DNA of 57,763 nucleotides, taken from IMG/VR virus record IMGVR_UViG_3300042346_000645, positions 1 through 57,763 of that record; one strand, written 5' to 3'. Each line of letters begins with the position of its first letter. Within the stretch, counting starts at the first letter, position 1. The notes beneath the pieces were generated by a model that made no database searches, was not told the DNA's origin, and saw only the letters and a program-made list of their open reading frames with translations. This stretch comes from a virus. Taxonomy: Duplodnaviria; Caudoviricetes. A program made the position numbers and the translations under genes. Below are positions 5,354 through 51,663 of the stretch, piece after piece.

Positions 5354-5376
5354 TCCTTACGTCATCTCGACGTTAT
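5354..5376 (-). promoter_or_regulatory. Conserved late-gene leader hairpin (ACGTC-GAGAT-GACGT) abutting the MCP RBS
   Basis: 23-bp sequence identical to 51630-51652; variants at 9247-9283 and 26190-26202. Confidence 0.6.
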
Positions 5377-9217: not shown

Positions 9218-9296
9218 CTCTTAGTTCCAGTTAAAGGAGTTTGCTCTGTCATCACGACATGGCGTAACATCATCTCGACGTTAATTATAAAGCATT

Positions 9297-11629: not shown

Positions 11630-14600
11630 CTACTGACGTTGATTATACTGGTAACTGTATTCAATCAATAGTTGTTTTTCTTCAGCTTCAAGCTCTTTGA
11701 CTAATGCTTTATCGCCTTCAACTCGCGCTTCATCTTGCTTATCTCGCAAATCTTTTACCTCTTTGATAATTGATTTAGTTTCATCGTAGAAGTCGAGCGT
11801 AGGTTGATGTTTACTGGTAAATTTATCAGTAGCTTCATCATCGCCTAATTTTTCATATTTTTTAAACTTATCGTAAATATCTTTTGCTTCTTTGCGCTGC
11901 GAATTATAAACACGACGATAAGAGTCAATAGTGTTTTCTTTAACAAAGCCAGATACGATAGGTAAGTTACTCACATTCATTTCGTCAGTATTTATTGAAG
12001 AAGTATAAATAGAGTTTACAAACTTATATAACTGGGTTGCCGCTGATCCACCAAGTGAATTTGTCAAATACTTCATTGTTTCGGGCGATACATCCACAAA
12101 GCCAGATTCCACTTTTGTTCCACCTGTCACTTTGTTCATCCATTTAGCAAAGTCGGAATACATCGTACCTCTTGTTGTAGACCATTCTTTTTCGCTATCT
12201 GGGATAGTGGTGTTGTAAACATCTTCTGGGTAAATAGGTTTACCCCATTGATTTCTATTACTGGTAATAGAATAAAACGGTTTTAAAATAGTAGGTATAA
12301 AACTTGCCGCTAAGTCTTTGTTATCCCATTCCCCCGATGCCATTGGATTAAAATAAGAGAAATTAGTAAAGAAAGAAGCAGTTAATTTATTAATTACTTT
12401 TTCTGGATCGCCACCTAATTGAAGTCTAGCGATTGCTGTACCAAAATCTTTAAAGAATGATAGACCGTAAGCAAGTTTAGCATTTACTCGAAGTCCAGTT
12501 TCCTCATCTAATTTAATACCAACGTATCTGGTTTTTTCTTCTTCGGGAATTAACTCATCATCCCCATCATCTCCACCAAGTAGCGCTAGTAAATATCCAA
12601 GCATTACATAAGATGAAAGTATCGCAGTAGCTTGTACTTTATGCTCTCCTCGAATCGTAGCATCAATCAAATTTTCAGTACCTTGAATAGCCGCATTAAA
12701 GAATAAATAGGTTGCACCGAGTTCTCTACCAGCAATACCGCGTCGATTAAAGTTAATGGTTACATTTCGTGAAAGTTTAGCCGCTTCCTGTGGTGTCATA
12801 CCGTTATCAACAGCGACTTTAAATGTAGATAAACGAGTTGCTGTTTCAGCGACATCGCCTAGATACGCTAATAAGTTAGCTAATTTATTATCAACTATTG
12901 CTAATTTTAATTTATCAAGCGGATACTCATAAAACTTGGTATCCATCATTTTTGATTTTAAAACAGCCAAATTAAGCTCATCTGCCTTTTTTTCAATACT
13001 TGAGATAAAGGCTGTTCCCGATTTACCACCGTTATCAAGATAAGATTTAATTACTCGATTCCATTCCGCATTATCTGTCGACCCTTTTGCAATGTATTTA
13101 CCAATTTGTATTGCCGACATTGGCGTTTTTAATAAAACAGTACCTGCATATTTAAATCCTTTTCTAGCTGTATTGGTGTATAACCCAACTGCCGGATCAA
13201 CCCATACCCCATTGTTAATAATGAATACAGGATTCCAAATTGTAAAAGCATGGCGCAAAAATCTACCAAAAGCAGCCATAAACTTAAACATGGAGTAAAT
13301 GTTCTCATCCCCTAATCTATTAAACGCTTGTACAAATTCTGAATCATTAACTGTAATACGAACTTGTTTACCATTACGCCAATAAGATATTTCTTCATTT
13401 TGGTCATAAGGTTTTTTCATCAAAGTAACTTGTGGTTCACCACCTACTTTGATGATTTCGTATTCACGTTTAGATTGTCCTGTTCGCGCTGTTTCTGCTT
13501 CAACGTAGCGACGGGCATCTCGTAATGTATCGCGTTGTCCAATTTCACTACCGTGGAAATACATGACGTATTGCGCTTTGGCTTTACCCATAATAGGTTT
13601 CATTGGAGTAACTTCAGTTTCCCATAAATTAGCGTCGGGATTATCTTCAATTAACTTGTAAAGCACTGATTGCACATACATTTTAGAAGAACGAATAACT
13701 GCTCTTTCTAAATTCATAACAATGTTTTCAACAATTTGACTAGCACGAGATTGGCGACCTAGCATTTTTCTATCGAATTTACCTGATATAGAAAAGCCTT
13801 GTCCGATATTTCCACGACTAGATTTTTTAGTTGCTTTACCAGTAACTTCATCGACTTCTTCAAAACCCTTCATTGGAACATGATAATCTGACGCATTATC
13901 CCATTCCTCTGCTTGCTCTGGTGAAATGTCACCCGATTGCACTAAGATTCGTTTAACTATGTTTTGAATGTTTTGCCAATCATCAACTAACTTTTCAAAC
14001 TCTGGGTATTTATCACCCATTGTTTCTTTATATCTTTCAATAATAGCCGCTGACTCTTTATCAGTCATACCGCTACCACCTTCACCTAATTTGCGGAACT
14101 TAGGATTGATGGATTGAATATACGCATTACGACTAGGAGCGCCTTTAGCATAAAGAAGTAAACCAATTTCATCTTTGTTTACATTCATTTTCGCCATTCT
14201 ATCAATTAGCGGTTGAATAAAACGCTCTTTAAGACTTTCCAATTGGTTCGCTGCGATATTACCAGCCGCTTCCATAGCAAGAACCACGTCATTGCTTTCA
14301 TCAACTTTGCCGCCTTGTTCTCTAATCTTATCCATGACAATGCGGATTCTCAATAAATCATCTTGAATCCATTTGCGCATAAATTGGAACTTGGTTTCAG
14401 CAGGTAAATTGAAAAGGTTTTCTTCGTTTTGAGCAAGGCTGAATTTTACATTCCCAGTATCTTGTCGTTGCGCAACCAACATCTCTGGTGCTTTACGCAA
14501 TGTCGCTTCAGCAATATAAAGCAAATCTTGATCGCTTAGATTATTTGCCCATTGGATAAATCCTAGCTTTTGTGAAGCAGGGAACATTTTACTCATATTG

Positions 14601-17600
14601 CGAAGTGCATTTTTGAGCCATGCTTTGAATCTTTGAACAATTTTGAGTTTAGGCGCATATTTAATTAAATAGGCAAGCGTTTCTTCGCGCAAATCTTCTT
14701 GAGGAGTATCTGCATCTAACGCATCTTGTCTACCTTTAACAGCCGCTGGGTTTTTAACTTTCACTAAGTTATCAGTTTCTTTTAAGAAATTTTCAAATTC
14801 AGCTTCATTAGCTCCCATTTTAAGCATATGCACACTAACTTCGTGCATCATTAAATAATGTAAATCTGTGGCTTTATCAATGTTGTCTGCAACAAAATAA
14901 GTTTTACCGTCAGCAGGATTATAGAATGCTTCAATATCACCGTTTTTGCTGTACTTAATATCAAAAGGTTGCAATACTTCATTTTGCCAAACACCTTGAA
15001 AGCCAATACGTTTTCTATCAATACCTTCGCGGTTAACTACTTTTTGCCATGCAATAGATCGCTCAATACTTTGTTTAACATCAAAACCTTTATAATCGTC
15101 CTTTACCCATTCCCATTTATGGTGATAGATAGCTTGTTTATCTGGGTTTTTATTTAAATCTACCGTCCGTATTGTCCCGTCTGGTTCAACTACAATTAAA
15201 TTACCGTTAATGGGTTCGGGCGAAGTATCAAAATCGGGCGAATTAAAAAATCCAATTGCACCAGTTTTAGTATTATAACGAATAAGGTTATATTCAAAAT
15301 CATCAATACGTTCTTTAGCATCCGCTAAATCGCCTTGTGGGAGAACCCCTTCATAATCTCTATGAAGATACACCTCATCCCCCATTTTTTTACCGACACC
15401 AAATTCAGAATATCTTTCTCCTGCGCCTAACTCTTTTGCTTCTTTTCTAAGCGCTTCTGTTTCAGCAGAACCAATTTCAACTTTTTCTTTTTTAACAGGT
15501 TTTAAAATTGAATCTAAAATAGGTGTGCCGCCAGATTTTTGAATAATTACCGCGCTTGCACCATAGCCGTTAATTTTTCTAACATCAAAATCTGGAAGTA
15601 ATTCTTGAACATAAGCAACTAACTCGTCTGGCTCAATGCCTTTTTGATAATTAGTTTGTTCAACGCCTTTTAATTTACGAGTAACATAAAAAGAATTGGG
15701 TTCTTCACCCGCTTTTGAATTTGCAGGTTTAATGGTATCGACATCACCTTTCCAACGACGACTACTAATTACGCCAACACCTCCATCTTTTAAAATTCGC
15801 CCAATATTTTTTACAATATCATCTCTAATTGCTCTTGGGACAACATTTAATACGTTTAAATTTACTACCGCATCTTGACTACCGTCTTTAATATTATCGG
15901 CATTTGTAAAATCGGGTTCGTCTGTTAATGATTTTGCCCAATTTTCTGGGAAAGGCTCGTAAGATTTTACATTTACATCCATTCCCTTATTAGTCAACGC
16001 TCTAAAAACACTTGCCGTACCACGTCCTTTCCCCGCACCATAATCCAATATGTTTTTAAGGTTTGGTATTTTTGCAAATAAGTTTCTAGCAACAGCGGCA
16101 TACGCCCCCATTGTTGTATCAATTTGGGTGTTTGCTGCGGAACGATCTCCAACTAATGCAAATTTAGTTCCGGTAGATTCTTCAATAATCGCTTGTGCTT
16201 GCTCATCAGAGATAATCTCAAACATCCCTGTACCAAGTAACTTATCAGTCCATCCTTTACCGTAAGCATCGTCACCGGCTTTGGTCAAACCTTCTTTTAA
16301 AGATTGCTCGGTGTGAGTATTGGTAGCGGCTTGTCGATTTTTTCCAAACAGTAAATCACTAAAGTTTAAAAGCGCGTCACTGCGGCTTTGCGCATCACCT
16401 TCGGTATAACGCTTAATTTTAGTGATACCATTAGCATTTAGGATTTTAACCGCTTCATCATACTCTTTACCTTTTGGAACTAACGCACCAGAGAATTCGC
16501 CAATATCAACAGCTCGCCCAATTTTCCCTTCAAAATAATGCGCAGGCATATTTTTGAGTTTATCTAAGAAACTGTACACTTTGCTCATCGTTTCTTCGGG
16601 TACATCTTGATACGATTCTTTAAATGCCCGTAAGCCTTTTGATACAAGATCACTCAATGCGTCCGTCGCGCTAGGATCAGAATAATCAGAGTACGGTCTT
16701 AATTCATCTGAAATAGAATTAAATTCAGATTCTAATTCTTCTTTTAATTGCGCTAATTTTTCATCACTAACAATATCTCCGCGAGCATCTTGTATTTGCT
16801 TAACAGTTTTAAATTGTTTTGCGGTATATGCGCGAATTGTACCTATCCCATAACTAACGTTTTCACCGCCTTTTATGGTTTTAGTCATTAGCTTCACAAC
16901 CGTGTCGAGATTGTGCGGTAAATAAACGCGCTTACCCGAACTGGTATAACCATTAAAAATACGTTCGTCAGATACAAGATTACTGTAATTTTCAACTAGC
17001 CATTTTTCATATTGAGTTTGATTGGTTTTTTCACGAATCAATTTAGAAGTCGCATAATCATCAATTGATTTTTGCGCTCCTTTTTGATCTCGAAATTCTT
17101 TAATTGCATATTGATAATCAAACGCTAAGTTTGATGCCTGTTGGCTATCGATTTCAATATAAGGTTTTGATGTGCCTAAAGTTTCATTTCGTTTTTTAAT
17201 AGACTCATTAAAAATATCCACAACTGCTTGTACAAATGTAGGGTCATTTTTCAATTCCATTGCATCAATTTTTGAAGAAACAAATTTCTTCATACTAGCA
17301 GGTGGAGTTTTGTTGGGTCTATATTGAATTTTAGGCGCTTTGCCGATTGACTTTAAAAACTCATATTTTAAAGTCACGCTATCTTGCAATCCTTTTAACA
17401 CTCCTCTATCTTCAATAGACGATGCGTTAATTAAACCTCTATAGCCAATTGCTTTTGCTAATTCTTTAGTATCGTCTGATAACGATTCATTTGCATTATT
17501 AAGTGCTTTAGAATCAACAACATAAGTTACTTGGGGATAACGTGGAGAATACACATCTGCATTAAAGTATTTATTTTTAGCGTTTACTTCTGGGGCAAAT

Positions 17601-20600
17601 TGTGAGGTATCCCCAATTAAAGTAATTTCACCAAAGCCACTTAGCGGATATTTTTGATTAACTATTGCTACACTAGGTACAGCGATACCGCCCATTTTGT
17701 CGGCATGGGTCAAATTACTTAAGCTGAGATTGTGAATAATAGCCAATGGGTTTTCATCTAAAACCTTTTTAGCTGTTTTGCTGAATCGAATATCATTTGA
17801 TTCTTTGCTAAACGCACCCGTGTTTTCAGTAGCTGACTTAACTTGATTTGAATTAAATACAATATAATCGTTATCTAATTCAACGCCATTGAATTTAGCA
17901 TTTATCAATTGGTCAGTTGTCAAAGAATCATATTCATCCCATCCTGCTATTTTTTTAATATCTAAAAATACCGGCATGAGTATATTGGTAGATGCAGCTC
18001 CCACATCTGCAATATTGTCTTTATCAGATGTGAACCAAAATAAACTATCTTGTGTTTTATTAGAATCGAATTCAGTAAATTTATCAGCGGTAGCATGATA
18101 AACCACCATAGGTTCGCCATTCTCATCAACAACCTTAGACGCATTTTCTGGATCATTTTCCCAATCACCAAACCACTCTTTAAATTCTGGCGTTCTGACT
18201 TGGTCGTATTGAACCGCGTTTAAGTTTGAGGGTTTACCGTTAGGCGCAAGGCGTTGCTGAGATTTGGCTTTGCTGAATTTTAAACTTGATGGTTTAATTA
18301 AATTAGGAATAGCCTTTGACATTTCATATTTAAAAATGTCGGTTCTTGAATAACCAAACGTAGGATGTGTAAATGCAAATTCATTAATATTTTTAGGAGC
18401 ATCATCACGATACCATCGCGCTATCTCAGATGTTTTTGATAAATCCCCATAAACTTCTTTTATTTTATTAGCAATTTGTTTTATATCATTTTCTGAAAAA
18501 TTAGATAAAGAGTTATCTATTGACATAACCCTAGAAACTTTATCAAGCTCCGTTTCAACTAACACGTTTCCTTTTTTATCAAAAGCCACCATACTAGGAT
18601 AATCTAAAAAGTTTTTTGGGTTATTAAAAACTAGGTATTCATCGTTACTATTTTTAAAAATAGTAAATACACCCGTATTTTTAAATTTTTTAAATCCTAG
18701 ATAATTTGCAACTTTTTTTGAAATTTCTAAATACTTATCGGTATATGTATCTGAGTCACTATTGATTTCTTCTAAAATCGCATTACGTCTATTTTCAAGA
18801 GTATCCCCTTGATACGACTCTCCTAGTAAAAATTTATTATATTCATACTTTTTGCGAAGCACATCTCTTTTTTCCCAAATAGCTGGGTAATCTTTTTTAA
18901 TTTGACTAGCACTTCTGGAAGATACGTATTGCCCCTCAGTTATTGCTAATTCAATAGCGGCTCTATGTTCACGTTCAGCTTGTGCAGTAATTTTTTCAAT
19001 ATCACCATTAGGGTTACTTGCAAGTTTTTGTTTTACATATTCCTCTTTACTATACTCAAATATTTCTTTAACGTAATCAGATGTTTTTCTATTTTGATAT
19101 TTGGGATTATAAGTTTCATCCCCATACCCTTTCTCAATAGTCACATTCGCCTGTTTAAGCGCTGCTGTGAGCGCTTTATTATCTTGGCTACCTAACTTAA
19201 TGCTTACATCTTTTCTGCCCTCTAAAAGCTCTTTATAAAGCTCTGGCGCATAGGCTTTGGCTTTGACTGGGAAAACGTGCGCATAAAGATTAAATTCAGC
19301 CACAAGTTCTTTATCACTTGCTAAATAAGGATGATTAGCTTCCGCATCACCTAGAATTAATTCTTTAAGTGTAGCGCGTTCATCTTCAGTTAATTTGCGA
19401 TAATTGAGCAATTGATGGTGAATAGCATGACCGAGTTCATGTAATGTGGTGCGATCAGATTGGCTTGTTTGATAAATAGCTTGTTCAACTTGATCGTAGA
19501 ATCCACCGATATTGCTATCTGTATTGATTAATGAAACCGATTCGAGATTAGGGTATTGGGTTTCATAATCAATTTCAGTTTCATCAAATTTACTTTGAGC
19601 GCCTTTATCCCCATAGAACCAATGATTAGGATAAAGTTTTTTAAGCTCAAGTGGTGAGTTAGCAAGTTGCTCACCTTCAATTGTCACTTCACGCCCAACG
19701 GTAGCTTTGCCCTTACGTTCTGGTGCAAAAATATCACCAGAAGTTGTCATGCCTTTACCGAGCATTTCATCAACTACTGTATCAACTTCTAAATCAGCTT
19801 TACGTTTCTTTTCCGCTTTAATATCTGCAATGATTTTATCTTCTTCAGCTTGCGTCTTTGCATCTAAAATTGCGTTAACTTCTTCATTTGTATAGGTATT
19901 TAGAAGTTCATCTCGGTGTTGCTGTTCTAAATCATCCTCTCTATCGGCGAACATTTTGGCAACAGCATTATCAATGCCTTCATACCCATAGTAGGGTTTA
20001 CCGTTTAGTGAGTCCCATAGTGCTGTTTCTAAATCATTTGCTCCATTGATATCACTAAAACCTTGTTCATTTAGAAGGGTTGCCATATCGTCAAATGTGC
20101 GAGAACGTGCGCCATTATTGAATAAACGAATATTCTTTTTATAGTCAGTAAATCCGCGATCCGCCATTTCAGTTCTATCAAGTCCTCCGAGTTTTCCAAT
20201 TAAAACTTTGAGTTCTTCAGTTCCATTTACTTTATTTAAATTAGCCGCAGGGTTTCTTGGTTTTCTAGCCACTTGGTCTTCAGTGACAATACCGTATTTC
20301 TCATCGCCAAGTTTTACCCAAGTGTGAGTATCCTTAGATAATTCTGGATTGGTGCGAATATGCGTTTGCGCTCCTTGCGGACTAGTAAATGCCTTACCGT
20401 TCTTTCTAAGAATAGGATTATTAATTGTTCCTTTGGGTTCTGCTACTGGTGTTTCTGTTGCTAACGATTCACCAGCTTTCAATTCATCTAATTTTTTAGC
20501 AGCTAATAGCGATTTATTCAAACTCCCCGTTAAATGAGTAGGTCGTTTTTTTGAAGTCAAAATATAATCAGTAATTTCGTTTCTATATTCAGCAGGTGTA

Positions 20601-23600
20601 CTTAAAATAATATCGTGAAACGATTCAGTTTTATTTCCATTTCTAGAATTATCTACATTATCAACACGTTGTTTTGCTTTTTCAATTTCTGCTACTGGTG
20701 TTTGATTTGTAACTTCAACGCTTGGTTTTAAATCGGGATAATCAGCTAACACTTCTTTGGGTACAGGCTTACCTTCATCAAGTGCTTCTTGAACACGTTC
20801 TTTATGAACTGCTAGTAATTCATCATACCGTTTTTTGTTTTGTTCAATAGCTATTTTACGAGAATTATCTTCAGACTTTTGCGCCCATTTTACATTGTAA
20901 GTAGGGTTCTTTTTAGATTGCGCTTTTTCTTTAACTAAGCTGCGAGTGCTATCTTTCTTTTCTTGCTCAAGTTCACTTCTAGTTTTTGCCCAAAATTCTT
21001 TTTGCCCAGACCATGTTCTGATTAAAACTTTATCAGCTTGTTCCTGTGTTAAGTTACCTAGAGTTACAGCATTGCGAATAGTATCGTCGTATGCTGATTC
21101 CTTAGCTGTTGGGAATCTTACTGCATATTCTTCACGAGTTAACTCATACAGTTTTTTATTTTCTGCTGTTGGAGTTTCTGCTACAGGTATTTCTGCTGTT
21201 GGCGTTTCTGTTACAGTAGCTTGTGAAACATCTTTGTTAATTCGATTAATTGCATCATTTAATATTTGATTTTTAGCATTAATCGATTTCAATTCAACAT
21301 TCAAAGGTTCATTTAAAATCTTTCCAGCCAAGTATCGGTGATGACCATCTTGAATTTTTATTTCACCATCGCTATAAATAGTAGCCTTAATGGGTTCGCT
21401 CAAATCAACACTTTTTGCCCATTCTTCTTCAGATTTACCGCTTGCCTTTTGAGAACTAACCGCCCAATTAATTTCAGTTTGATTAAGTGGTTTTAATTCT
21501 TGCGGCATTATTTTACTAACTTCTTTTACATCACCGTAATATTTACCATTAGGTTCATTGTAATAAGTGGTTACAGGCATTTCTGCTGTTGGTGTTTCTG
21601 CTACAGGCGTAACTGTTTCATTTGGTTTTAATACAATGTATTCCTTACCGTTAAATTTGCTATTAAATGAAATACCATCATAACCTTGCTCTCTTGCTGT
21701 ATTGACAAGGTCGTCCATTGAATTGGAAGGCGCTAAGCCAATTTTTTGTTTAGCTTCTGCCCAATTGTTAGCTTCAAGTACATTATTAAAAGTATGAGTT
21801 GATTTAGATATGCTACCTTCTTCACCAGCATAATCCTTAGCTATTTTTTCATCTGGTGACATAAATAGTGCATTACCAACTGTGGTAGTAACATCTTCAG
21901 TTGATTTCCCCTTTGGAACACCTCGATATAAATCCACTGTAATTGGCATTTCTGCTGTTGGCGTTTCTGCTGTTGGCATTTCTGCTGTTGGCATTTCTGG
22001 CGCTTGCTCAATCGGTGTAATCAAATTAGTGTAATGATCCCTTTGCGCCTTATTGAGCGAATACTTCTCACCTGTTGGGAGATATAGCATTCCGCCTTTA
22101 AGCTCTGCGCCACCTTGCGCCACTGCTTGACCAATAAAATCTAAACTTTCCTGTGTAGCGTCTAACTTATCTGGTTTAGGAGCGGGAGGCTCAATTACCG
22201 GTGGTTCAACTACAGGTGTTGCCGCTTGAATGTCTGCTTCATTTTGCGCTTGAGCGCGAGTAGTGTCATGTCCAAAGTTATTAGCTTCAACAATATTGGT
22301 GAACGTGTCGATAGCTTCTTGCGGTGTTGTCGTTTTATCCAGTTCTGTTGTGATAGTTTCATTGTCCACAATAGGCGCTGTGGTATCTACCGCTTCAGCA
22401 GGTGGGGTAGGGTTTAAATTCTCATCTCTGAAAATATCCGTATAGGCTCTTAGGTTTTCATTAACAGGTGTTTCTGTTTCCGCTTGAGTTTCCGCTTGAG
22501 TTTCCGCTTGAGTAGTATCAATAGGCGCTTGTTGTGGTTTACCACCAGACGCAGCAAAATAAGCATTGCGCTCATCTTCTGTCATGCCTTTGGCTCTATC
22601 GATTTCTTTTTGACGCAATATTTCATCGCCGGTTAATGTCTGAGCAGTTTGACCGGCAGTGCTAATAATAGCCTGTCCTCCGCCCATTGCAGCGCCTGTA
22701 ACCAAGCCTATTGCCGCAGCGTTTGGTACACCTTCAAATAGACTTGGTTTATCTAACGCATAGTTTTCGATAATCTTTTCTACGGCAGATTGTGGCATTT
22801 CTTCCACTACACCTTCAATAGCCATTCCACCTAATATCTGTTTCGCCATATCGCGAAGTGATACTTCTGACGATTGTGTTCCTGCTGATAATGTATCAAT
22901 ATCAGATATGCCTAATTTCTTAGCGGCTACGCTACCGATACCAGCTAAGAACGCATCGGCTGCACCTGCGCCTACCGCTGAAGCTGATTGCTTTTCTGTA
23001 AGCAATCCATTATCGGTTTCTTGGCGTATCCCTTCAGCCTGTTGCCCTGCGCCTACTACAAACTCACCTGCACCTGCTCCAATTACACCACTGGCTTTGC
23101 CAAGCATACCAATACCTTTTACAGCGCCACCGATTGCACCACCTGCATAAGAAGCAGGTGCGGATTCAAGTGCAGTATTTAGTGTAGCTACTGGATTGGT
23201 TACTGCTGCTTTTAATGTGCCGCCAAATGTGTCTTGTGATTGAATCTCTTTTTGAGCCGCTTGTTCTTCTGGTGATTGTTGTGAGGTTAGATATTCTCTA
23301 GCCGCTTTGAAATCAATCCCCTTATCTTCCAAGTATTTACCTGTTTCGCCACCACTGGCAATGTCCGCAATACCTGTAATAAATTCTGGAACACCAATTA
23401 CGCCTTTTGATAGTGCCATTGATTGATCGTAAGCATATCGTCTTACTGCACCAATAGGTGATGACTCTAATGCTGTTGCTACCTGTTTTGCAGATTGATA
23501 AGCAGGTGAGTTTTCAATATCAGTTCCCACCTGTTTGGCTTTATCAAATAACGATGGCTGTTCTGTTTCTTGTGCTACAGGCTGTTCTGTTTCTTGTGCT

Positions 23601-23800
23601 ACAGGTTGCTCTTGCGCTATGGAAGTTTCTACAGGTTGTTCGGCTACTTTTTCTTTCTCAGCATCCGATGTTACTGGAAAATCCTGTAGCGTATCCCAAT
23701 TTGCTATTAGATAGTCCAGTGCTTCTTCTTGTGTTGCGCCTTCTGATCCACTGACTGTGTATCTTTTCCCATTGGGTGCTTTAAAAGTAAAAATAGCCAT
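11630..23800 (-). CDS. Giant polyvalent (probably ejected) protein: two ART-like domains, ParB-like domain, two zincin peptidase motifs, SAM methyltransferase, LPD38-like C-terminus
   Basis: 4056 aa; LYRG..FMS..GYDGI..EYIVL; IQDGHHRY; HELGH; FKEWFGDW..VVYHAT..NQVKSA; LDYGAGKG..NVLNV; HEVSVH; NFNRRG..YLFFNAAIQG. Confidence 0.8.
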   Translation of the reverse strand: MAIFTFKAPNGKRYTVSGSEGATQEEALDYLIANWDTLQDFPVTSDAEKEKVAEQPVETSIAQEQPVAQETEQPVAQETEQPSLFDKAKQVGTDIENSPAYQSAKQVATALESSPIGAVRRYAYDQSMALSKGVIGVPEFITGIADIASGGETGKYLEDKGIDFKAAREYLTSQQSPEEQAAQKEIQSQDTFGGTLKAAVTNPVATLNTALESAPASYAGGAIGGAVKGIGMLGKASGVIGAGAGEFVVGAGQQAEGIRQETDNGLLTEKQSASAVGAGAADAFLAGIGSVAAKKLGISDIDTLSAGTQSSEVSLRDMAKQILGGMAIEGVVEEMPQSAVEKIIENYALDKPSLFEGVPNAAAIGLVTGAAMGGGQAIISTAGQTAQTLTGDEILRQKEIDRAKGMTEDERNAYFAASGGKPQQAPIDTTQAETQAETQAETETPVNENLRAYTDIFRDENLNPTPPAEAVDTTAPIVDNETITTELDKTTTPQEAIDTFTNIVEANNFGHDTTRAQAQNEADIQAATPVVEPPVIEPPAPKPDKLDATQESLDFIGQAVAQGGAELKGGMLYLPTGEKYSLNKAQRDHYTNLITPIEQAPEMPTAEMPTAETPTAEMPITVDLYRGVPKGKSTEDVTTTVGNALFMSPDEKIAKDYAGEEGSISKSTHTFNNVLEANNWAEAKQKIGLAPSNSMDDLVNTAREQGYDGISFNSKFNGKEYIVLKPNETVTPVAETPTAEMPVTTYYNEPNGKYYGDVKEVSKIMPQELKPLNQTEINWAVSSQKASGKSEEEWAKSVDLSEPIKATIYSDGEIKIQDGHHRYLAGKILNEPLNVELKSINAKNQILNDAINRINKDVSQATVTETPTAEIPVAETPTAENKKLYELTREEYAVRFPTAKESAYDDTIRNAVTLGNLTQEQADKVLIRTWSGQKEFWAKTRSELEQEKKDSTRSLVKEKAQSKKNPTYNVKWAQKSEDNSRKIAIEQNKKRYDELLAVHKERVQEALDEGKPVPKEVLADYPDLKPSVEVTNQTPVAEIEKAKQRVDNVDNSRNGNKTESFHDIILSTPAEYRNEITDYILTSKKRPTHLTGSLNKSLLAAKKLDELKAGESLATETPVAEPKGTINNPILRKNGKAFTSPQGAQTHIRTNPELSKDTHTWVKLGDEKYGIVTEDQVARKPRNPAANLNKVNGTEELKVLIGKLGGLDRTEMADRGFTDYKKNIRLFNNGARSRTFDDMATLLNEQGFSDINGANDLETALWDSLNGKPYYGYEGIDNAVAKMFADREDDLEQQHRDELLNTYTNEEVNAILDAKTQAEEDKIIADIKAEKKRKADLEVDTVVDEMLGKGMTTSGDIFAPERKGKATVGREVTIEGEQLANSPLELKKLYPNHWFYGDKGAQSKFDETEIDYETQYPNLESVSLINTDSNIGGFYDQVEQAIYQTSQSDRTTLHELGHAIHHQLLNYRKLTEDERATLKELILGDAEANHPYLASDKELVAEFNLYAHVFPVKAKAYAPELYKELLEGRKDVSIKLGSQDNKALTAALKQANVTIEKGYGDETYNPKYQNRKTSDYVKEIFEYSKEEYVKQKLASNPNGDIEKITAQAEREHRAAIELAITEGQYVSSRSASQIKKDYPAIWEKRDVLRKKYEYNKFLLGESYQGDTLENRRNAILEEINSDSDTYTDKYLEISKKVANYLGFKKFKNTGVFTIFKNSNDEYLVFNNPKNFLDYPSMVAFDKKGNVLVETELDKVSRVMSIDNSLSNFSENDIKQIANKIKEVYGDLSKTSEIARWYRDDAPKNINEFAFTHPTFGYSRTDIFKYEMSKAIPNLIKPSSLKFSKAKSQQRLAPNGKPSNLNAVQYDQVRTPEFKEWFGDWENDPENASKVVDENGEPMVVYHATADKFTEFDSNKTQDSLFWFTSDKDNIADVGAASTNILMPVFLDIKKIAGWDEYDSLTTDQLINAKFNGVELDNDYIVFNSNQVKSATENTGAFSKESNDIRFSKTAKKVLDENPLAIIHNLSLSNLTHADKMGGIAVPSVAIVNQKYPLSGFGEITLIGDTSQFAPEVNAKNKYFNADVYSPRYPQVTYVVDSKALNNANESLSDDTKELAKAIGYRGLINASSIEDRGVLKGLQDSVTLKYEFLKSIGKAPKIQYRPNKTPPASMKKFVSSKIDAMELKNDPTFVQAVVDIFNESIKKRNETLGTSKPYIEIDSQQASNLAFDYQYAIKEFRDQKGAQKSIDDYATSKLIREKTNQTQYEKWLVENYSNLVSDERIFNGYTSSGKRVYLPHNLDTVVKLMTKTIKGGENVSYGIGTIRAYTAKQFKTVKQIQDARGDIVSDEKLAQLKEELESEFNSISDELRPYSDYSDPSATDALSDLVSKGLRAFKESYQDVPEETMSKVYSFLDKLKNMPAHYFEGKIGRAVDIGEFSGALVPKGKEYDEAVKILNANGITKIKRYTEGDAQSRSDALLNFSDLLFGKNRQAATNTHTEQSLKEGLTKAGDDAYGKGWTDKLLGTGMFEIISDEQAQAIIEESTGTKFALVGDRSAANTQIDTTMGAYAAVARNLFAKIPNLKNILDYGAGKGRGTASVFRALTNKGMDVNVKSYEPFPENWAKSLTDEPDFTNADNIKDGSQDAVVNLNVLNVVPRAIRDDIVKNIGRILKDGGVGVISSRRWKGDVDTIKPANSKAGEEPNSFYVTRKLKGVEQTNYQKGIEPDELVAYVQELLPDFDVRKINGYGASAVIIQKSGGTPILDSILKPVKKEKVEIGSAETEALRKEAKELGAGERYSEFGVGKKMGDEVYLHRDYEGVLPQGDLADAKERIDDFEYNLIRYNTKTGAIGFFNSPDFDTSPEPINGNLIVVEPDGTIRTVDLNKNPDKQAIYHHKWEWVKDDYKGFDVKQSIERSIAWQKVVNREGIDRKRIGFQGVWQNEVLQPFDIKYSKNGDIEAFYNPADGKTYFVADNIDKATDLHYLMMHEVSVHMLKMGANEAEFENFLKETDNLVKVKNPAAVKGRQDALDADTPQEDLREETLAYLIKYAPKLKIVQRFKAWLKNALRNMSKMFPASQKLGFIQWANNLSDQDLLYIAEATLRKAPEMLVAQRQDTGNVKFSLAQNEENLFNLPAETKFQFMRKWIQDDLLRIRIVMDKIREQGGKVDESNDVVLAMEAAGNIAANQLESLKERFIQPLIDRMAKMNVNKDEIGLLLYAKGAPSRNAYIQSINPKFRKLGEGGSGMTDKESAAIIERYKETMGDKYPEFEKLVDDWQNIQNIVKRILVQSGDISPEQAEEWDNASDYHVPMKGFEEVDEVTGKATKKSSRGNIGQGFSISGKFDRKMLGRQSRASQIVENIVMNLERAVIRSSKMYVQSVLYKLIEDNPDANLWETEVTPMKPIMGKAKAQYVMYFHGSEIGQRDTLRDARRYVEAETARTGQSKREYEIIKVGGEPQVTLMKKPYDQNEEISYWRNGKQVRITVNDSEFVQAFNRLGDENIYSMFKFMAAFGRFLRHAFTIWNPVFIINNGVWVDPAVGLYTNTARKGFKYAGTVLLKTPMSAIQIGKYIAKGSTDNAEWNRVIKSYLDNGGKSGTAFISSIEKKADELNLAVLKSKMMDTKFYEYPLDKLKLAIVDNKLANLLAYLGDVAETATRLSTFKVAVDNGMTPQEAAKLSRNVTINFNRRGIAGRELGATYLFFNAAIQGTENLIDATIRGEHKVQATAILSSYVMLGYLLALLGGDDGDDELIPEEEKTRYVGIKLDEETGLRVNAKLAYGLSFFKDFGTAIARLQLGGDPEKVINKLTASFFTNFSYFNPMASGEWDNKDLAASFIPTILKPFYSITSNRNQWGKPIYPEDVYNTTIPDSEKEWSTTRGTMYSDFAKWMNKVTGGTKVESGFVDVSPETMKYLTNSLGGSAATQLYKFVNSIYTSSINTDEMNVSNLPIVSGFVKENTIDSYRRVYNSQRKEAKDIYDKFKKYEKLGDDEATDKFTSKHQPTLDFYDETKSIIKEVKDLRDKQDEARVEGDKALVKELEAEEKQLLIEYSYQYNQRQ

Positions 23801-25185: not shown

Positions 25186-26187
25186 CTATGAAAGTGGGGT
25201 TGCATTGAGATTGGTTATTTTCCGCTGCCTAATTGCCTTTTCATATTCATACTTTTTTTGAGCATTGACGTTAGCAGTGTTTTTATCCATTTCATTCATT
25301 GCACCAGATACCACTGAGCCGCCCATTAGCAGATAATCTTTTGGTGTCATGTCTGCGACAAGTTTACCAAAGAAGCCTGACGATCCCGTGGTTGCTAGAT
25401 TGCCGACGTTCCCTGTTATATTTCCGATGGTGCTGGTTGCCCCAAGTGCTTGAACACCTGCGCCACTAAAAACTGGTTGCAGTAATCCCGAACCTACTTG
25501 CCCACCTACATTACCAAGAGTTCCAGCGCCTGAGCCAGCCACAAAGTTGCCGGTATTATTTATAATGCCTAACTTGTCCATAGTTCCCTGCGCAAGAGTT
25601 CCGCCAGCGCCTGTTATACCTTGTGTTGCACCTGCTTGAACCGTACCGCTTGCAAAGTTAGTAGGCGTGATTGCATTAGTTGCCTGCCCAAGTAGCGAGG
25701 TTGATTGCAAACCTGTTTGAGCTGCCGCGCTTGCAGCATTTGCCGCGTTAGCCGATTGGATACCTGCTGTTCCGAATGCAAACTCACCGCCAGCAGCAAG
25801 CGAAGCCACTGCGCCGGATGCAAGAGATGTAAGGCCGCCTGCTAAACCTACGATAGCGCCGATTTTCATCAAACCTTTATCGCCTGTCACCATGCCGACG
25901 ACGCTCATTGCTGTTCCTGCGACCGCTGCGATTGTACCAATTGCCCCGATTGTAGCTAGCGCCGCTGTGCCAATTGCGCCCATTGAAGCCATTACCCCGC
26001 CTGCTGCAATAGCGGTTCCTGCTGCTGTAATGGCTGTGCCTGCTGCCGCAACTGCTGAAACGATAAAAGGCATTTCTTTTTGTTTAAAAGGCGGCTTATG
26101 TGGGTTGCCGATCGGCATACCCATTTGATCCATTTGCTTGCGGGAGATTGCTTCCCCTGCCACAAAGTTTATTTGTTTAATTGTCAT
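25186..26187 (-). CDS. Putative DNA ejection/pilot protein with hydrophobic helices
   Basis: Long A/G-rich hydrophobic segments; first gene of the late unit. Confidence 0.55.
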   Translation of the reverse strand: MTIKQINFVAGEAISRKQMDQMGMPIGNPHKPPFKQKEMPFIVSAVAAAGTAITAAGTAIAAGGVMASMGAIGTAALATIGAIGTIAAVAGTAMSVVGMVTGDKGLMKIGAIVGLAGGLTSLASGAVASLAAGGEFAFGTAGIQSANAANAASAAAQTGLQSTSLLGQATNAITPTNFASGTVQAGATQGITGAGGTLAQGTMDKLGIINNTGNFVAGSGAGTLGNVGGQVGSGLLQPVFSGAGVQALGATSTIGNITGNVGNLATTGSSGFFGKLVADMTPKDYLLMGGSVVSGAMNEMDKNTANVNAQKKYEYEKAIRQRKITNLNATPLS

Positions 26188-26282
26188 AACGTCCTCACGA
26201 CGATGAAGTAAAGATAATTTTGCGCGATTGTATCACAGCTATACTATAATTGAAGTATGTCAGAAAAAAGGAGGTGATCCAG

Positions 26283-26336
26283 ATGGCTATGAAAAAAGGT
26301 AAAGGCGGCAAAGGCGGAGGCGGTAAAAAATGCTAA
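26283..26336 (+). CDS. 17-aa Lys/Gly-rich micropeptide MAMKKGKGGKGGGGKKC
   Basis: Not in the ORF track; TATAAT at 26245-26250, AAAGGAGGTGATCCAG at 26267-26282, terminator downstream. Confidence 0.65.
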   Translation: MAMKKGKGGKGGGGKKC

Positions 26337-26380
26337 GGTAACTTAGCAAGTAAAACGTTTTATTTGTTGTTAAGTTAGAG

Positions 26381-26415
26381 AGCCTTACAGGTTTTAAATC
26401 TTGTAAGGCTTTTTT
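26381..26415 (+). terminator. Rho-independent terminator
   Basis: AGCCTTACAG/TTGTAAGGCT stem plus T-run. Confidence 0.8.
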
Positions 26416-26485
26416 GTGCCTGCTGATTTGTGCCGCAGAGATTGCTAGGAATGAAGCCTGTCGGCAAGTGTTGCGGAGAGGCTGA

Positions 26486-26504
26486 AATGAGAATGATTAT
26501 CATT
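26486..26504. promoter_or_regulatory. Fur box-like palindrome
   Basis: AATGAGAAT-G-ATTATCATT; one mismatch to the 7-1-7 Fur core TGATAAT-N-ATTATCA. Confidence 0.6.
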
Positions 26505-26604
26505 TGCAATTGGTTTTCTTCAATTAAATCAAGCACATAGCCAAATCGCTAATTAATTTTACGCTAAACAATATTAATAAAGTTAATTAAGTAAAATAAT
26601 TTAG

Positions 26605-26633
26605 TTGATTAATAAAATTACATCGAATATTCT
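26605..26633 (+). promoter_or_regulatory. Sigma70-like early promoter
   Basis: TTGATT-17-TATTCT with an AT-rich upstream region. Confidence 0.5.
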
Positions 26634-26681
26634 GTAATCCCCTAGGGGTGAAACAAAAAACAAACTAAACCGGAGAGAATC

Positions 26682-26990
26682 ATGAAAGCATTATATAAAG
26701 TTACAACACGCGATGTTGATGGATCAGACTCACGTTGTTACAAAACTTACGAAGCCGCTGCAAAGCGCTTTCAAGAAATGAGTGGTTATCCACTTGTTAA
26801 GGGGCATCGTGAGTTTAGACTCATATCTGATTTTGGATGCGTCGTAATTTTCTCAGCGGATATAACTGCCGATATCCCAGTCTATGTAATACCTGTTGAA
26901 GTTTACTTAGATAGATACGATGAAGAAGGCGCTCGTATTGATAATTATGGCGTTGAATATTTAAACAGAAATTTAGGAGAAAACTCATGA
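26682..26990 (+). CDS. Early hypothetical protein
   Basis: ORF preceded by AACCGGAGA RBS. Confidence 0.65.
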   Translation: MKALYKVTTRDVDGSDSRCYKTYEAAAKRFQEMSGYPLVKGHREFRLISDFGCVVIFSADITADIPVYVIPVEVYLDRYDEEGARIDNYGVEYLNRNLGENS

Positions 26991-30218: not shown

Positions 30219-32729
30219 TTAAATTCCGTAATGATCCTTAACTTTCTTGATAACTTCATTCTCGTCTAACGTGCTTCTACGCCAAATCGTGTGTTTTTTC
30301 CGCCCTCCATCGCTTGTCGGCACATCGATTCTCTTGTGAACTTTCTCATAGCCAATTTGTAAAAGTATCCGAGTCAATGCCGATGTTTTTGGAAGTTTTA
30401 AAACTGACGGCTCAAACTCCTCAAAATTAAGTTTACCAAGTAGTGTGATATCGACTATGTTTTCGTTAATGACCTCGCAGTGGTAATGTGCAATCAAATC
30501 CTTCACTTCTTCAAATTCATGCGATACAGAATAGCCGATCATCTTTTCACGCGACAAGGTTTTAGGCGCTCGACCTTTCGCTGAAAAATCCGCACTTATC
30601 ACCCGATTCATAAAGTAATGGCAAAGTGCATCCATCCGTCTATCCGTTTCTAAAAACAGTTTTTCAAAATACCTGTTAGTTTCCTGCTCACCACCAAGTA
30701 GTGCAAACAAATGTTCCTCCGACTGACAGCGACTATACAAAACGCAATAACGACGATCCCCATTGGTAATCGGCAGTGCATCTTGATAATTGGTCAAAAG
30801 AAAATAGGACGTGAAATTCGGAACAGTCCTAGAGTTAGAAAATTTTTCTTCAATCTGAATTGTTTCGTTTGTGATGTACGGTTTCATTGTATCGATAATC
30901 GACCACCTGTTATCGCCCGATAGCCTTATCTCCTCAACAATATTCAGCACCGAACCATACGCCCATCCCGAAAACGTTCCTTTCGTAAATTGCTTCGGAT
31001 CAAGTTGCGTGGCATTCGACCCAAGTATTCCCTGCAAAATGCGAGTAAAGTATGTTTTACCACCACCTTGAGTCCCCTGCAAAAGGACTGCCCAGTTCAC
31101 TTTGCTACCAATGTTTTGTACAACATGGCACATCCAGTCTAGCAGTATCGCCCTTTCTTTAGGTTCAACCAGCGTGAATTCCAAGTGCCTGAGCATCATA
31201 TCCACAACAAGCAACCCATCGGCATCCATCACTTCACATGGCAACACACCGCGCTTCTTATATGAGTTCACATATCGCAGTCCATCGTTATCATTAACGA
31301 AAATCCCATCGTTTTTACTCGCCCAGTACATGGTATCGATGACTGTATCCATTTTCCAATCAACGAGCGCCATAGATGATGCTGATCTTTCCGCTGCGAC
31401 GCACTCATCCATGCGATCAAACTCCGCGTTGAAGGCTTCGCGCTTGATAGAGTAGCCGTGCTTCAAGTTATGAAACTCCATCGGACGTTGTACATAAACC
31501 CAGTTTTTCAACCACGACGGCATCTCCTCAACAATCAACCCACCTTTCTTCGGTGGGCAAAGCTCACGAACAATAGCCGACTTCGTCATGCCCTCACCTT
31601 TACCCCATCGGTCGTAAATGTCCTGTGCGATTTGCTGACGCTTGGTAAGTGTCACAGCGCTGAGTGGTAATTTACGCAGTTTGTTGCGCACATCCTCATA
31701 CGCCCTGTCATTATCAACCGACAGACCTTCCGACCCAGTGACAAAGATTTCTTTCACCTGCTTCTCGACAATCTCCCCAACACTTACCCCACTGTCCTTG
31801 ACCATCTTAATCACTGTGGCAAACGTCAACGGGCGCACTTTCTTTTCCGTCTTAAATGATTGCCATTTGCGGTCAATATCTGCCGCGTTGAACTTATCCG
31901 AGTTAGCTGACCAATGTAGCCAGAGCAACTTCCCATCATCCGAACCACGATATTGATGATGCAATGCCTGCCCGACGGTAATCCACGTCGAGTAATCACC
32001 TGCCGATTCAACCAGTGCATCGAGATTAGCTTCAACCAGTGCATCGCTGACATCAATCGGCTCATGCGCGAGCGCAAGCGAGAGTCCCTGCATATCATCC
32101 GCGTCATCATCCGTGCCATCTACATCGAATTCAACTGTCAAGTAATCCTTGACAGTTCCCTGCGCCAGCTTTTCAACAGGAAAGGCAAGCGCTACATCCA
32201 CATCAATCTCACTGCCCTCCATGACCATCACGAAAGCCGATTCACTCGACCCAGCGCTAACACTTGGCATATACATAAACTGAGCAGGCTTAAAAGCACT
32301 GTCATCAATAATAAAACTGCTAAACTCTGACGCGAACCAGTGCATCACGGCAACATACTCCTCCGCGCTAACCTCCCGTGACAGTGGCAACACTATACGA
32401 AAGCGATTAGCGTCATCTGTACTACGCCATGTTGAGTACGCAACCAGCGCAAAGCCGGTCATCTCCAGCTCAAACTCAATCTCTCCTTTAGTCATTGCGC
32501 ATTCATCAACGTCAATGGTTAAAAGTGAACGTCCGAGCAGGTTCTCCGTGTTGCGATAACCATTACTGAACCCACCGCCACAGAACCAGCCTTCCTGCTC
32601 TTTGGTCTTTGCAACTTTGTGCTTACCAAGTACCGTGCAAATTCGCTCCCACGTCACCTCTTTATTGCGACAGACAGCACTGTTCTTATCTCCGCGACTT
32701 ATGCGGTACGTTTTAGTAGACTCCACCAT
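30219..32729 (-). CDS. Primase-helicase (prim-pol, PriCT-2, DUF5906-like NTPase)
   Basis: LTIDVD..YST..RFRIVLPL; DYSTWITVGQALH; WAVLLQGTQGGGKT Walker A; IVEEI. Confidence 0.88.
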   Translation of the reverse strand: MVESTKTYRISRGDKNSAVCRNKEVTWERICTVLGKHKVAKTKEQEGWFCGGGFSNGYRNTENLLGRSLLTIDVDECAMTKGEIEFELEMTGFALVAYSTWRSTDDANRFRIVLPLSREVSAEEYVAVMHWFASEFSSFIIDDSAFKPAQFMYMPSVSAGSSESAFVMVMEGSEIDVDVALAFPVEKLAQGTVKDYLTVEFDVDGTDDDADDMQGLSLALAHEPIDVSDALVEANLDALVESAGDYSTWITVGQALHHQYRGSDDGKLLWLHWSANSDKFNAADIDRKWQSFKTEKKVRPLTFATVIKMVKDSGVSVGEIVEKQVKEIFVTGSEGLSVDNDRAYEDVRNKLRKLPLSAVTLTKRQQIAQDIYDRWGKGEGMTKSAIVRELCPPKKGGLIVEEMPSWLKNWVYVQRPMEFHNLKHGYSIKREAFNAEFDRMDECVAAERSASSMALVDWKMDTVIDTMYWASKNDGIFVNDNDGLRYVNSYKKRGVLPCEVMDADGLLVVDMMLRHLEFTLVEPKERAILLDWMCHVVQNIGSKVNWAVLLQGTQGGGKTYFTRILQGILGSNATQLDPKQFTKGTFSGWAYGSVLNIVEEIRLSGDNRWSIIDTMKPYITNETIQIEEKFSNSRTVPNFTSYFLLTNYQDALPITNGDRRYCVLYSRCQSEEHLFALLGGEQETNRYFEKLFLETDRRMDALCHYFMNRVISADFSAKGRAPKTLSREKMIGYSVSHEFEEVKDLIAHYHCEVINENIVDITLLGKLNFEEFEPSVLKLPKTSALTRILLQIGYEKVHKRIDVPTSDGGRKKHTIWRRSTLDENEVIKKVKDHYGI

Positions 32730-32741
32730 AAACAATCCTCG

Positions 32742-43211: not shown

Positions 43212-43835
43212 ATGAATAAAATTGACCAAAAAATTGTAGGCTACAAAGTAGTTGATAAGACAGAAGAAAAAGTAGTGTTTGAGATGATACACGAGAATTT
43301 TCCTCGACCACCGCATTTGACGGGTACAACGTATAAGATTAAGACACCGCAGTCTGAGCACGCTCTGTATATCACGATTAACGATATGGTGCTTAACGGT
43401 GACGAGCGTCATCCCTACGAGATGTTTATCAACAGTAAGAACATGGATCATTTCCAGTGGGTACTTGCACTGACTCGCTTAGTATCTGCTGTGTGGCGCA
43501 AAGGTGGTGACAGTACGTTTCTTGTTGAGGAGTTGAAGAATGTGTTTGACCCGAAAGGTGGTTATTACAAAAAAGGTGGCGTGTATATGCCATCGCTAGT
43601 GGCTGAGATAGGAACAGTTATCGAACAACATCTGGTTGCAAATGGCGTGATTAAAGTTGAGGTGGATGAACACATGGAAAAGTTTATCAAAGCAAAGCGT
43701 GAAGAAGTAATGGGGAGTGAAGAAACTGGGTATCCTGCTCATGCTACGCTATGCGCTAAATGCAACACTAAAGCAGTGATACTTATGGATAACTGCCAGA
43801 CGTGCCTTTCGTGTTCTGAATCTAAATGCGGGTGA
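43212..43835 (+). CDS. nrdJb: Class II ribonucleotide reductase C-terminal subunit (TSCPD domain plus Zn ribbon)
   Basis: TYKIKTP..EHALYITIND..FINSKNMDHFQW..ALTR..RKGGD..EELK.VFDP.GGY..YMPS; CAKC..CQTCLSC..SKCG. Confidence 0.85.
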   Translation: MNKIDQKIVGYKVVDKTEEKVVFEMIHENFPRPPHLTGTTYKIKTPQSEHALYITINDMVLNGDERHPYEMFINSKNMDHFQWVLALTRLVSAVWRKGGDSTFLVEELKNVFDPKGGYYKKGGVYMPSLVAEIGTVIEQHLVANGVIKVEVDEHMEKFIKAKREEVMGSEETGYPAHATLCAKCNTKAVILMDNCQTCLSCSESKCG

Positions 43836-47884: not shown

Positions 47885-48123
47885 TTTCGTGATCTCATAG
47901 AAAGTACCGTAATTAATTTTTGTGTAAGCCGTATCATGTCGTTATCGAGCAGGCGTATTTGGTCAATAAGCTCAATTAGCGCGTCTGTTGTTTCAGTAAG
48001 GATTGGCTTAACAATCGTTGTTACCCATATCCACACGAAATAGACGATATAACCCATGCTACTCGATGCAATGATTGGAAAACCGTATTGGTTGATATAT
48101 TTAGCTAATGCGTCAACATCCAT
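47881..48123 (-). CDS. Holin-like membrane protein
   Basis: YGFPII plus one TM and a coiled coil; adjacent to the lysozyme. Confidence 0.55.
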   Translation of the reverse strand: MDVDALAKYINQYGFPIIASSSMGYIVYFVWIWVTTIVKPILTETTDALIELIDQIRLLDNDMIRLTQKLITVLSMRSRK

Positions 48124-48613: not shown

Positions 48614-48620
48614 TTTATTC

Positions 48621-49417: not shown

Positions 49418-49434
49418 GATTTTATCCTATTTTG

Positions 49435-51623: not shown

Positions 51624-51629
51624 CTTTTG

Positions 51630-51652: not shown

Positions 51653-51663
51653 GTGTAGCGCAA

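Follow-up and report, generated by a model that had tools for sequence, protein, structure and literature searches.

Anatomy and conservation of the micro-gene

The window analyzed here is the whole of IMG/VR record IMGVR_UViG_3300042346_000645 (57,763 bp), a complete phage genome with terminal repeats, and the subject of the analysis is a micro-gene positioned in the divergent gap between its virion genes (minus strand, up to 26187) and its early genes (plus strand, from 26682). The first-pass annotation, made from the sequence alone, described a stand-alone unit in this early/late control region composed of a TATAAT box, the Shine-Dalgarno (SD) stretch AAAGGAGGTGATCCAG, an ATG, a short open reading frame (ORF) and a terminator. 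All of these elements were found where it had placed them, and the stand-alone position in the early/late gap is borne out by the gene layout and by conservation in relatives. To judge from its sequence, the unit looks like a real, independently transcribed micro-gene under selection. The encoded micro-peptide contains 6 Lys, 8 Gly, no acidic residue and a C-terminal Cys, and is 16–17 residues long in the family. The same annotation expected standard gene callers to miss such a gene, and they appear to do so: the 28-aa TTG-extended form is absent from a 15-billion-protein collection, and neither the micro-peptide nor similar strings were found in the searched literature. The features of the unit and its immediate surroundings are collected in Table 1.

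Table 1. Features of the micro-gene and its immediate surroundings, in window coordinates
Feature	Position	Strand	Basis or remark
CGTC-N5-GACGT hairpin	26189..26202	-	leader of the divergent 333-aa late gene; context, outside the micro-gene
TTGCGC, only -35-like hexamer	26220..26225	+	invariant in the relatives compared; putative assignment
TGATACAAT, candidate extended -10 of the late-gene promoter	26227..26235	-	plus-strand ATTGTATCA invariant in relatives; putative function, by comparison with the sigma-70 consensus
TATAAT, candidate -10 of the micro-gene	26245..26250	+	present in every relative compared; GTATAAT in L199
16-nt SD stretch AAAGGAGGTGATCCAG	26267..26282	+	read from the sequence
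SD element AAGGAGGTGATCCAG	26268..26282	+	15-nt perfect complement of the candidate-host 16S 3' tail; family-invariant core 26268..26278
ATG start	26283	+	read from the sequence
Micro-ORF, 17 codons and TAA, encoding MAMKKGKGGKGGGGKKC	26283..26336	+	conserved with synonymous changes
Hairpin H1 (TGCTAAG / CTTAGCA)	26331..26348	+	5' arm is the Cys codon and the stop codon
A/U-rich linker with well-conserved stretch GTAAAA..TTTTATTTGTTGTTAAGTTAGAG	26349..26376	+	positions at least 90% conserved
Intrinsic terminator, core stem 26380..26410, then T6	26377..26415	+	predicted fold and covariation

Relatives were collected through the neighboring 333-aa protein, and thus independently of the micro-gene, which yielded 24 viral contigs with 46–90% identity. 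The unit occurs in 23 of these, with a complete micro-ORF at the same place in 22 and a cut by the contig end in one; the remaining relative (L008, the same as L024) carries a deletion between two GAAAAAAGG repeats that removed the SD, the ATG and the first codons while leaving the remainder of the unit intact. The peptide takes the 17-aa form in 13 relatives, a 16-aa form with one Gly codon missing in 7 and a G14S form in 2, and the start codon is ATG throughout, in the window as in all relatives that have the ORF.

An alignment of 21 distinct versions was used to analyze the substitutions. Nine columns of the ORF are substituted, eight of them at codon position 3 and all eight synonymous (counting TAA/TAG), with one at codon position 1, none at position 2 and a single whole-codon in-frame indel; 14 of the 28 columns of the 5' untranslated region (UTR) vary. 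Because eight of the nine substituted columns are synonymous third positions and the indel removes a codon in frame, the peptide is taken to be the selected product. The same pattern settles in the affirmative a point that the first-pass annotation had left to be checked, namely whether the peptide is conserved in relatives, and it indicates purifying selection. In 6 of the 21 sequences, GGT replaces GGA at codon 12, destroying an internal GGAGG while keeping the Gly, which argues against a purely RNA-level reading in which the codons serve as SD repeats. The unit as a whole forms a conservation island, with a mean nucleotide identity to the window of 0.88 versus 0.63–0.76 for the neighboring gene and 0.76 for the downstream 250 nt.

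Two further scans are biased by their own patterns, and several of the metagenome contigs are probably the same as IMG/VR contigs, so that their counts are not independent. A scan with the back-translated C-terminal pattern recovered 22 viral contigs and 2 contigs in metagenome-assembled genomes (MAGs); one of metagenomes that fixed only the SD and MAMKK gave 19 contigs, 17 of them family members with the same two peptides. On an 89-kb metagenome contig (L204) otherwise unrelated to the family, a longer Lys/Ala/Val-rich, histone-H1-like ORF starts with MAMKKK behind GGAGGTGAT. A 20-aa antisense ORF (26287–26349) was considered as a candidate gene and rejected, as coordinate arithmetic places all observed changes at its second codon positions.

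The Shine-Dalgarno element and the folded transcript

By chance, the exact 16-mer should turn up 1.9e-5 times in the 57.8-kb genome, both strands counted. Its duplex with the 16S tail has a calculated energy of −24.0 to −27.5 kcal/mol at the micro-gene, versus a mean of −4.35 (sd 2.55) across the 1998 ATG triplets of both strands and −16.3 for the next best of them. Within 20 nt upstream of the start, exact complementarity amounts to 0–6 nt in the 74 longest non-overlapping ORFs and to 15 nt at the micro-ORF, and no other site of at least 8 nt covering the SD core was found in the genome. The claim that this SD is far longer than those of the other genes here is therefore upheld.

The proposed 16-nt perfect complement fared less evenly. 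Among the 16S gene copies sampled from the candidate host family (see below) that extend through the tail, 18 of 18 read ...CTGGATCACCTCCTTA, with a gene 3' end of ...GGGGCTGGATCACCTCCTTA; 16 nt of pairing is correct only for tails ending in TTT, and 15 nt are complementary to the candidate-host 16S. Nor is the 16-nt match a conserved feature, for the family shares only 11 invariant nt, (A/G)AGGAGGTGAT, and differs in the last four bases. Directly before the ATG stands CCAG in 8 of 23 relatives (and in the window), CAAC in 8, TATT, GAGC and GATC in 2 each and CAGC in 1, with CAGT in one metagenome contig; CCAG is the extension that gives 15–16 nt of complementarity. The SD core is positioned 8 nt before the ATG and the complementarity ends at position −1.

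We take the bases 5' of GGATCA... in 16S to belong to helix 45, following the Escherichia coli secondary structure. The conserved 11–13 nt would accordingly match the free 16S tail, and the last two bases of the 15-nt match in the window would have to invade helix 45. As far as the sequences tell, selection appears to act on pairing with the entire free 16S tail and not on a length of 16 nt. In the predicted ensembles of the 21 sequences, the mean unpaired probability of the SD is 0.29–0.77, typically about 0.6. The earlier suggestion of a pure trap for 30S subunits finds little favor in these predicted folds, since an SD that is accessible and optimally spaced from its ATG points to translation.

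The only −35-like hexamer is located 19 nt upstream of TATAAT and 16 nt upstream of an overlapping TACTAT, and no −35 hexamer with four of six matches lies 16–18 nt upstream of TATAAT. From the invariant TATAAT and the covarying terminator, with no canonical −35, a monocistronic unit of about 160 nt is predicted. The terminator was called strong by the first-pass annotation and proves to be so: a 15-bp stem is followed by T6 ending at 26415, with a minimum free energy (MFE) of −43.4 kcal/mol (z −4.6), and compensatory changes are observed at 7 of 25 predicted pairs, all of them in the terminator stem. The terminator scan, whose criteria limit the loop to 8 nt, listed no plus-strand terminator here; the assignment is supported by fold and covariation instead. 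The pairing probability of the stem in all 21 sequences is 0.86–0.98 when the RNA folds freely and 0.91–0.98 with the region from the SD to 12 nt past the stop codon masked.

Hairpin H1 also shows compensation, in that where the stop codon is TAG the partner base is C in four of five sequences and a G·U pair forms in the fifth; L006 lacks H1. Read from the minus strand, H1 (26331–26348) with the TTTTTT that follows it (26325–26330, the complement of the invariant Lys-Lys codons AAAAAA) resembles an intrinsic terminator, one that would act on leftward transcription heading into the late-gene promoter region. The MFE structure of the window shows the Gly/Lys codons pairing over a long range with the U-rich 3' UTR; such pairing was found in the MFE structure of only 4 of the 21 sequences, is absent from the consensus fold and was set aside. 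A G-quadruplex was likewise rejected, judged from sequence only, as there are no GGG runs except in L199. The linker motif of the 3' UTR is not enriched as a repeated site in the genome (21 matches with up to 3 mismatches versus 23.4 expected), and Rfam 15 contains no family that matches at its gathering threshold, the best overlapping match being PyrR at 21.7 bits versus 54 (E 1.8).

Genome setting and candidate host

The genome has a GC content of 39% and encodes a major head protein, a portal or adaptor protein, large and small terminase subunits and an SU10-type adaptor, together with a DNA polymerase, a primase-helicase, PhoH, ThyX and a dUTPase. No phage RNA polymerase (RNAP) was detected among the ORFs scanned in the genome, and the host RNAP is therefore expected to transcribe the micro-gene. 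The minus-strand block of virion genes runs from 47438 to 57743 and continues from 144 to 26187, and the plus-strand block of early genes runs from 26682 to 47421, with the exception of the primase gene on the minus strand (30219–32735). Inside the virion block, after three small proteins (333, 183 and 272 aa) without a family match, lies the gene for a 4056-aa polyvalent protein (11630–23800, minus strand) with ART-PolyVal, PBECR5 nuclease, methyltransferase-like and LPD38 domains. Among GenBank phages there was no DNA match to window positions 25900–26900 and no protein match to the neighboring 333-aa gene, and no equivalent micro-gene was found in MW202426.1, a distant relative whose major capsid protein is 47% identical.

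A small CGTC-N5-GACG hairpin with the motif TAACGTCGAGATGACGTAAGGA occurs at 5359–5373, 51635–51649 and 26189–26202, with a degenerate copy near 9270–9285, in each case just upstream of a late gene (major head, tail-fiber-like, 333-aa and portal). The strict pattern has 3 sites, or 5 matches counting both strands, versus 0.14 expected, and could represent a late-gene leader, a processing site or a promoter element. Directly after the terminator of the micro-gene, a GC-rich element (26417–26490) is found at the same place in L001–L003, L007, L010, L013, L016, L018 and L065–L067, and in a diverged version in L015, L042, L043 and L064; its consensus forms two nested helices (CCGCAG...TTGCGG and TGC...GGCA) with weak covariation. 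At about 26488–26505, the relatives carry one or the other of two operator-like palindromes, type 1 (AATGATTATCATT) in the window, L001, L018 and L067 and type 2 (ATAGCGA(A/T)TCGCTAT) in most others, which suggests exchangeable regulator specificities ahead of the early genes.

The two MAG contigs that carry the unit bear the labels Methylococcaceae and Methylomonas, and the sequencing runs containing the stretch are lake-water or freshwater metagenomes. The phage clade is one of freshwater podophages, with a gammaproteobacterial methanotroph as possible host. The MAG label is a hint only, given that binning can misplace phage contigs and that the phage GC is 39%. The argument from the 16S tail is independent of the host assignment, because the terminal dozen bases of 16S are presumably widely shared among Proteobacteria. 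Of 201 genomes from the candidate host family, 9 contain the 11-nt-SD pattern AAGGAGGTGATNNNNRTG, one of these cases being the binned phage contig, and a K/G micro-ORF follows the pattern in none of the other 8; since no other site precedes a similar ORF, the micro-gene was not taken from a host gene visible in those 201 genomes. A DNA search of 346 genomes of the family gave no spacer-like matches among the matches listed, which comprised a conserved-gene match and binned phage contigs. The conserved-gene match covers about 290 nt (43323–43612, in ORF 43212–43835 with a TSCPD domain), is found in 291 of the 346 genomes at 69–75% nucleotide identity among the matches listed, and reflects either a generally highly conserved gene or a host-derived one.

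Function, known systems and wider occurrence

The rreB and rreR genes of alpha-proteobacteria (Hahn et al. 2016, PMC5711450) produce 165-nt mRNAs with a 14- or 18-aa small ORF (sORF) and 16–17 nt of complementarity to 16S; the mRNAs are found associated with 30S subunits and undergo weak translation, no function is known for them, and the two peptides are unrelated to each other. By our predictions from sequence, the micro-gene resembles them as a stand-alone mRNA of about 160–165 nt with a putative RpoD-type promoter, a terminator, a clade-conserved sORF of 14–18 codons (16–17 here), 15–17 nt of complementarity to the 16S 3' end and a peptide that is unstructured in rreB and rreR and expected to be so here. 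The differences are as clear: the micro-gene is viral with a gamma-proteobacterial candidate host, whereas rreB and rreR are chromosomal and alpha-proteobacterial; its ATG lies outside the complementary stretch, whereas the rreB start is a GTG with its first base inside; and its SD is predicted to be open, whereas in rreB all but 5 nt are contained in a conserved hairpin (PMC5711450). Two defining features of an rre gene are at least 16 nt of clade-conserved complementarity and a GTG start whose first base is the last one of that stretch; here the complementarity is 15 nt with 11 nt invariant and no 5' extension, and the start is ATG. A 12-bp SD helix that uses nearly the whole free tail is known from a crystal structure cited in the rreB paper (PMC5711450), and no follow-up work on rreB was found in the searched literature. 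The peptide encoded here is a Lys/Gly polycation, and the comparison with the rre genes is one of architecture. The micro-gene may work in the manner of the rre genes, yet should not be classified with them.

Other systems share single aspects of this design. In STAB-SD, known from the Bacillus thuringiensis cry3A leader, an SD-like sequence near the mRNA 5' end binds 30S subunits; such binding would also protect the RNA here, but STAB-SD has no start codon after it and a long downstream mRNA, whereas the SD of the micro-gene belongs to a 17-codon ORF of its own, about 80 nt beyond which the transcript ends. The bar minigenes of phage lambda are likewise very short phage ORFs with a good SD, which act on the translation apparatus through peptidyl-tRNA drop-off; they have 2–3 codons and no selected peptide, in contrast to 16–17 codons with a strictly conserved amino-acid sequence. 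The peptide itself recalls the small polybasic genome-condensing proteins of viruses, such as Microviridae protein J and the adenovirus mu peptide, which are also tiny, Lys/Arg/Gly-rich and disordered. No sequence relationship to these exists, the gene lies outside the packaging module, and no genome-condensing polybasic peptide is known in tailed dsDNA phages. Attenuator leaders of the trpL/hisL type also combine a short ORF enriched in one or two amino acids with a downstream terminator, but the micro-gene has no alternative antiterminator and no gene directly after it.

On balance we consider it somewhat probable that the micro-gene produces a 30S-capturing mRNA that is translated into a disordered Lys/Gly polycation with a polyanion as its target. 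The host RNAP would transcribe the unit from a host-type promoter, and the strong terminator would yield a monocistronic mRNA of about 160 nt. Its SD, predicted to be largely unpaired and 8 nt before the AUG, would pair with essentially the whole free 16S 3' tail, allowing the mRNA to capture 30S subunits ahead of all other phage messages, whose SDs are 3–6 nt. Efficient translation would then give large amounts of the 16–17-residue Lys/Gly peptide ending in Cys, and selection acts chiefly on this peptide rather than on the RNA. Carrying a net charge of about +6, the peptide is expected to be a flexible disordered polycation that may bind electrostatically to phage or host DNA, to RNA or to the ribosome, and its C-terminal thiol could allow dimerization or attachment.

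Several points weigh against this reading. The polyanion target of the peptide is pure inference, and high output is assumed, since the extended SD impeded translation in rreB, the only studied analogue, according to PMC5711450. The deletion in L008 means either that the gene is dispensable at least sometimes or that the contig is a defective genome. The AAR-GGN codon runs are themselves SD-like purine repeats, so that an RNA-level constraint could explain part of the third-position pattern, and the invariance of AAAAAA and TGC is not clean evidence for the peptide because both overlap H1 and the minus-strand terminator-like site. There is no canonical −35, and the sigma-70 promoter scan accepted no plus-strand promoter at the micro-gene; support for the promoter accordingly comes from conservation and from the invariance of TATAAT.

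If the RNA were what matters, the unit could be a ribosome-bound small mRNA like rreB, in which the long SD clamps the 30S subunit, translation is poor, the function resides in the RNA-ribosome complex (ribosome sequestration, ribosome-dependent RNA turnover or STAB-SD-like protection of the 5' end) and the peptide is secondary. The matching architecture argues for this reading (about 160–165 nt, own promoter and terminator, a 14–18-codon sORF and 15–17 nt of complementarity; PMC5711450), as do the start of the SD only about 12 nt from the predicted 5' end and a duplex energy far beyond that of normal SDs. We nevertheless think it rather unlikely, as the SD bases past 11–12 nt are not conserved, the complementarity stops before an ATG rather than reaching a GTG, the SD is mostly unpaired instead of lying in a conserved hairpin, and the amino-acid conservation is far stricter than for an incidental ORF. 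In addition, overexpression of rreB was without a growth effect, and its authors argue that ribosomes far outnumber the RNA (PMC5711450). A less probable account places the function in the early/late switch, through back-to-back promoters that exclude each other, through a regulatory or antisense RNA acting by its A/U-rich 3' part, or through both. The location exactly between the virion and early modules fits this account, the −10 elements of the candidate micro-gene and late-gene promoters are only 12 bp apart, and an invariant block (TTTTGCGCGATTGTATCA...ATACTATAAT) reads TGATACAAT on its minus strand; the well-conserved linker ahead of the terminator, the minus-strand terminator formed by H1 and T6 and the two alternative operator-like palindromes downstream would also find a role in it. 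The promoter assignments are, however, consensus matches only, target complementarity was not found, the linker motif is not enriched in the genome, and the ORF-3' UTR pairing is confined to a few of the sequences; the amino-acid selection and the 11-nt SD would be left unexplained.

It is highly improbable that the ORF is the leader peptide of an attenuator that senses the charging of Gly-tRNA or Lys-tRNA and controls read-through into the early genes, although a short ORF rich in two amino acids, oriented like those genes, does stand immediately ahead of an intrinsic terminator. Such a mechanism is not supported because the terminator forms whether or not the ORF is masked, with no competing antiterminator; moreover, covariation in the terminator stems proceeds freely against a constant upstream sequence, and the first early ORF (26682) begins only about 270 nt past the terminator, behind promoter-like and operator-like sequences of its own. 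We give as little credence to a DNA-level element in which the ORF is incidental, for instance a recombination linker joining modules, or an origin or packaging site with GGCGG iterons. In its favor, AAAGGCGG is repeated within the ORF, and the unit is positioned at a mosaic boundary with downstream sequence of at least two types. Such an element would not be expected to confine its changes to third positions, to gain or lose a codon in frame, to keep start and stop invariant behind an optimally spaced SD or to have a covarying RNA terminator, and the GGCGG repeats become GGTGG in some relatives with the Gly kept.

The first-pass annotation had proposed a search of phage sequences for the extended SD followed by short K/G-rich ORFs. 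A scan of viral contigs with AAGGAGGTGATCCNNATG gave at least 115 matches, at least 84 of them distinct; among the matches listed there are 13 distinct closed ORFs of 6–30 aa, of which 6 contain at least 60% K+R+G (3 from the micro-gene family and 3 unrelated), and two more contain 52–57%. A control pattern of reversed order gave 19 matches with one short ORF, which is not basic. The control is too small for statistics. In at least 8 of the 115 matches to the 13-nt SD and ATG (L079, L082, L094, L106, L120, L152, L160 and L172), the ATG is followed immediately by a stop codon, giving a start-stop mini-ORF.

Tiny polybasic ORFs directly behind SDs of 13–15 nt were observed on contigs unrelated to the window (L085/L193, L155/L194, L163/L195, L148/L197 and L098/L196), encoding MAKPKQKGKGRGGGKKPR, MACKGKGKGKGMGTGGKKK, MGCKKKKGGGG, MAKKDYKAPAKRKMPKKKRGY and a 30-aa MPYGKGTYGNK... 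(4 contigs). Their surroundings are, respectively, a replication module, the end of an endolysin gene, the vicinity of a membrane protein, the region ahead of a large terminase gene and the neighborhood of head genes. ORFs of 14–19 aa beginning MACKGKGKGKG... were seen on seven unrelated viral contigs (L243–L249), whose Lys/Gly tails, nucleotide sequences and flanks differ; several have a strong SD in front, a terminator follows one of them, and one is located directly behind a terminase gene. Two short basic ORFs, one of them from this set, adjoin terminase genes, and the L249 locus has no match in GenBank phages. It is conceivable, if doubtful, that these ORFs belong to a wider class of phage Lys/Gly polycationic micro-peptides of 11–30 aa on mRNAs with maximal SDs, with the micro-gene as its best-documented member, and that the peptides act as genome-encoded polyamine substitutes that neutralize or condense nucleic acid, or else retune ribosomes. 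In the same tentative vein, the peptides might be used in packaging or host takeover, with the oversized SD guaranteeing output despite competition for ribosomes. The evidence for such a class is a lead and not a result.

Genes of 17 codons escape standard annotation. Few stretches of the phage clade are as well conserved as this one, whose ribosome-docking site is the strongest of its genome. Judged by the literature search, it appears to be the first viral counterpart of the rre-type small mRNAs. The contrast in design (an ATG, an open SD and pairing with the free tail only) would set "bind and translate hard" against the "bind and stall" of the rre genes, so that the micro-gene offers a natural means of testing the limits of SD length. 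Should the peptide indeed bind nucleic acid or the ribosome, it would represent a new kind of phage effector, and the similar tiny polybasic ORFs in unrelated phages mean that the principle may be general.

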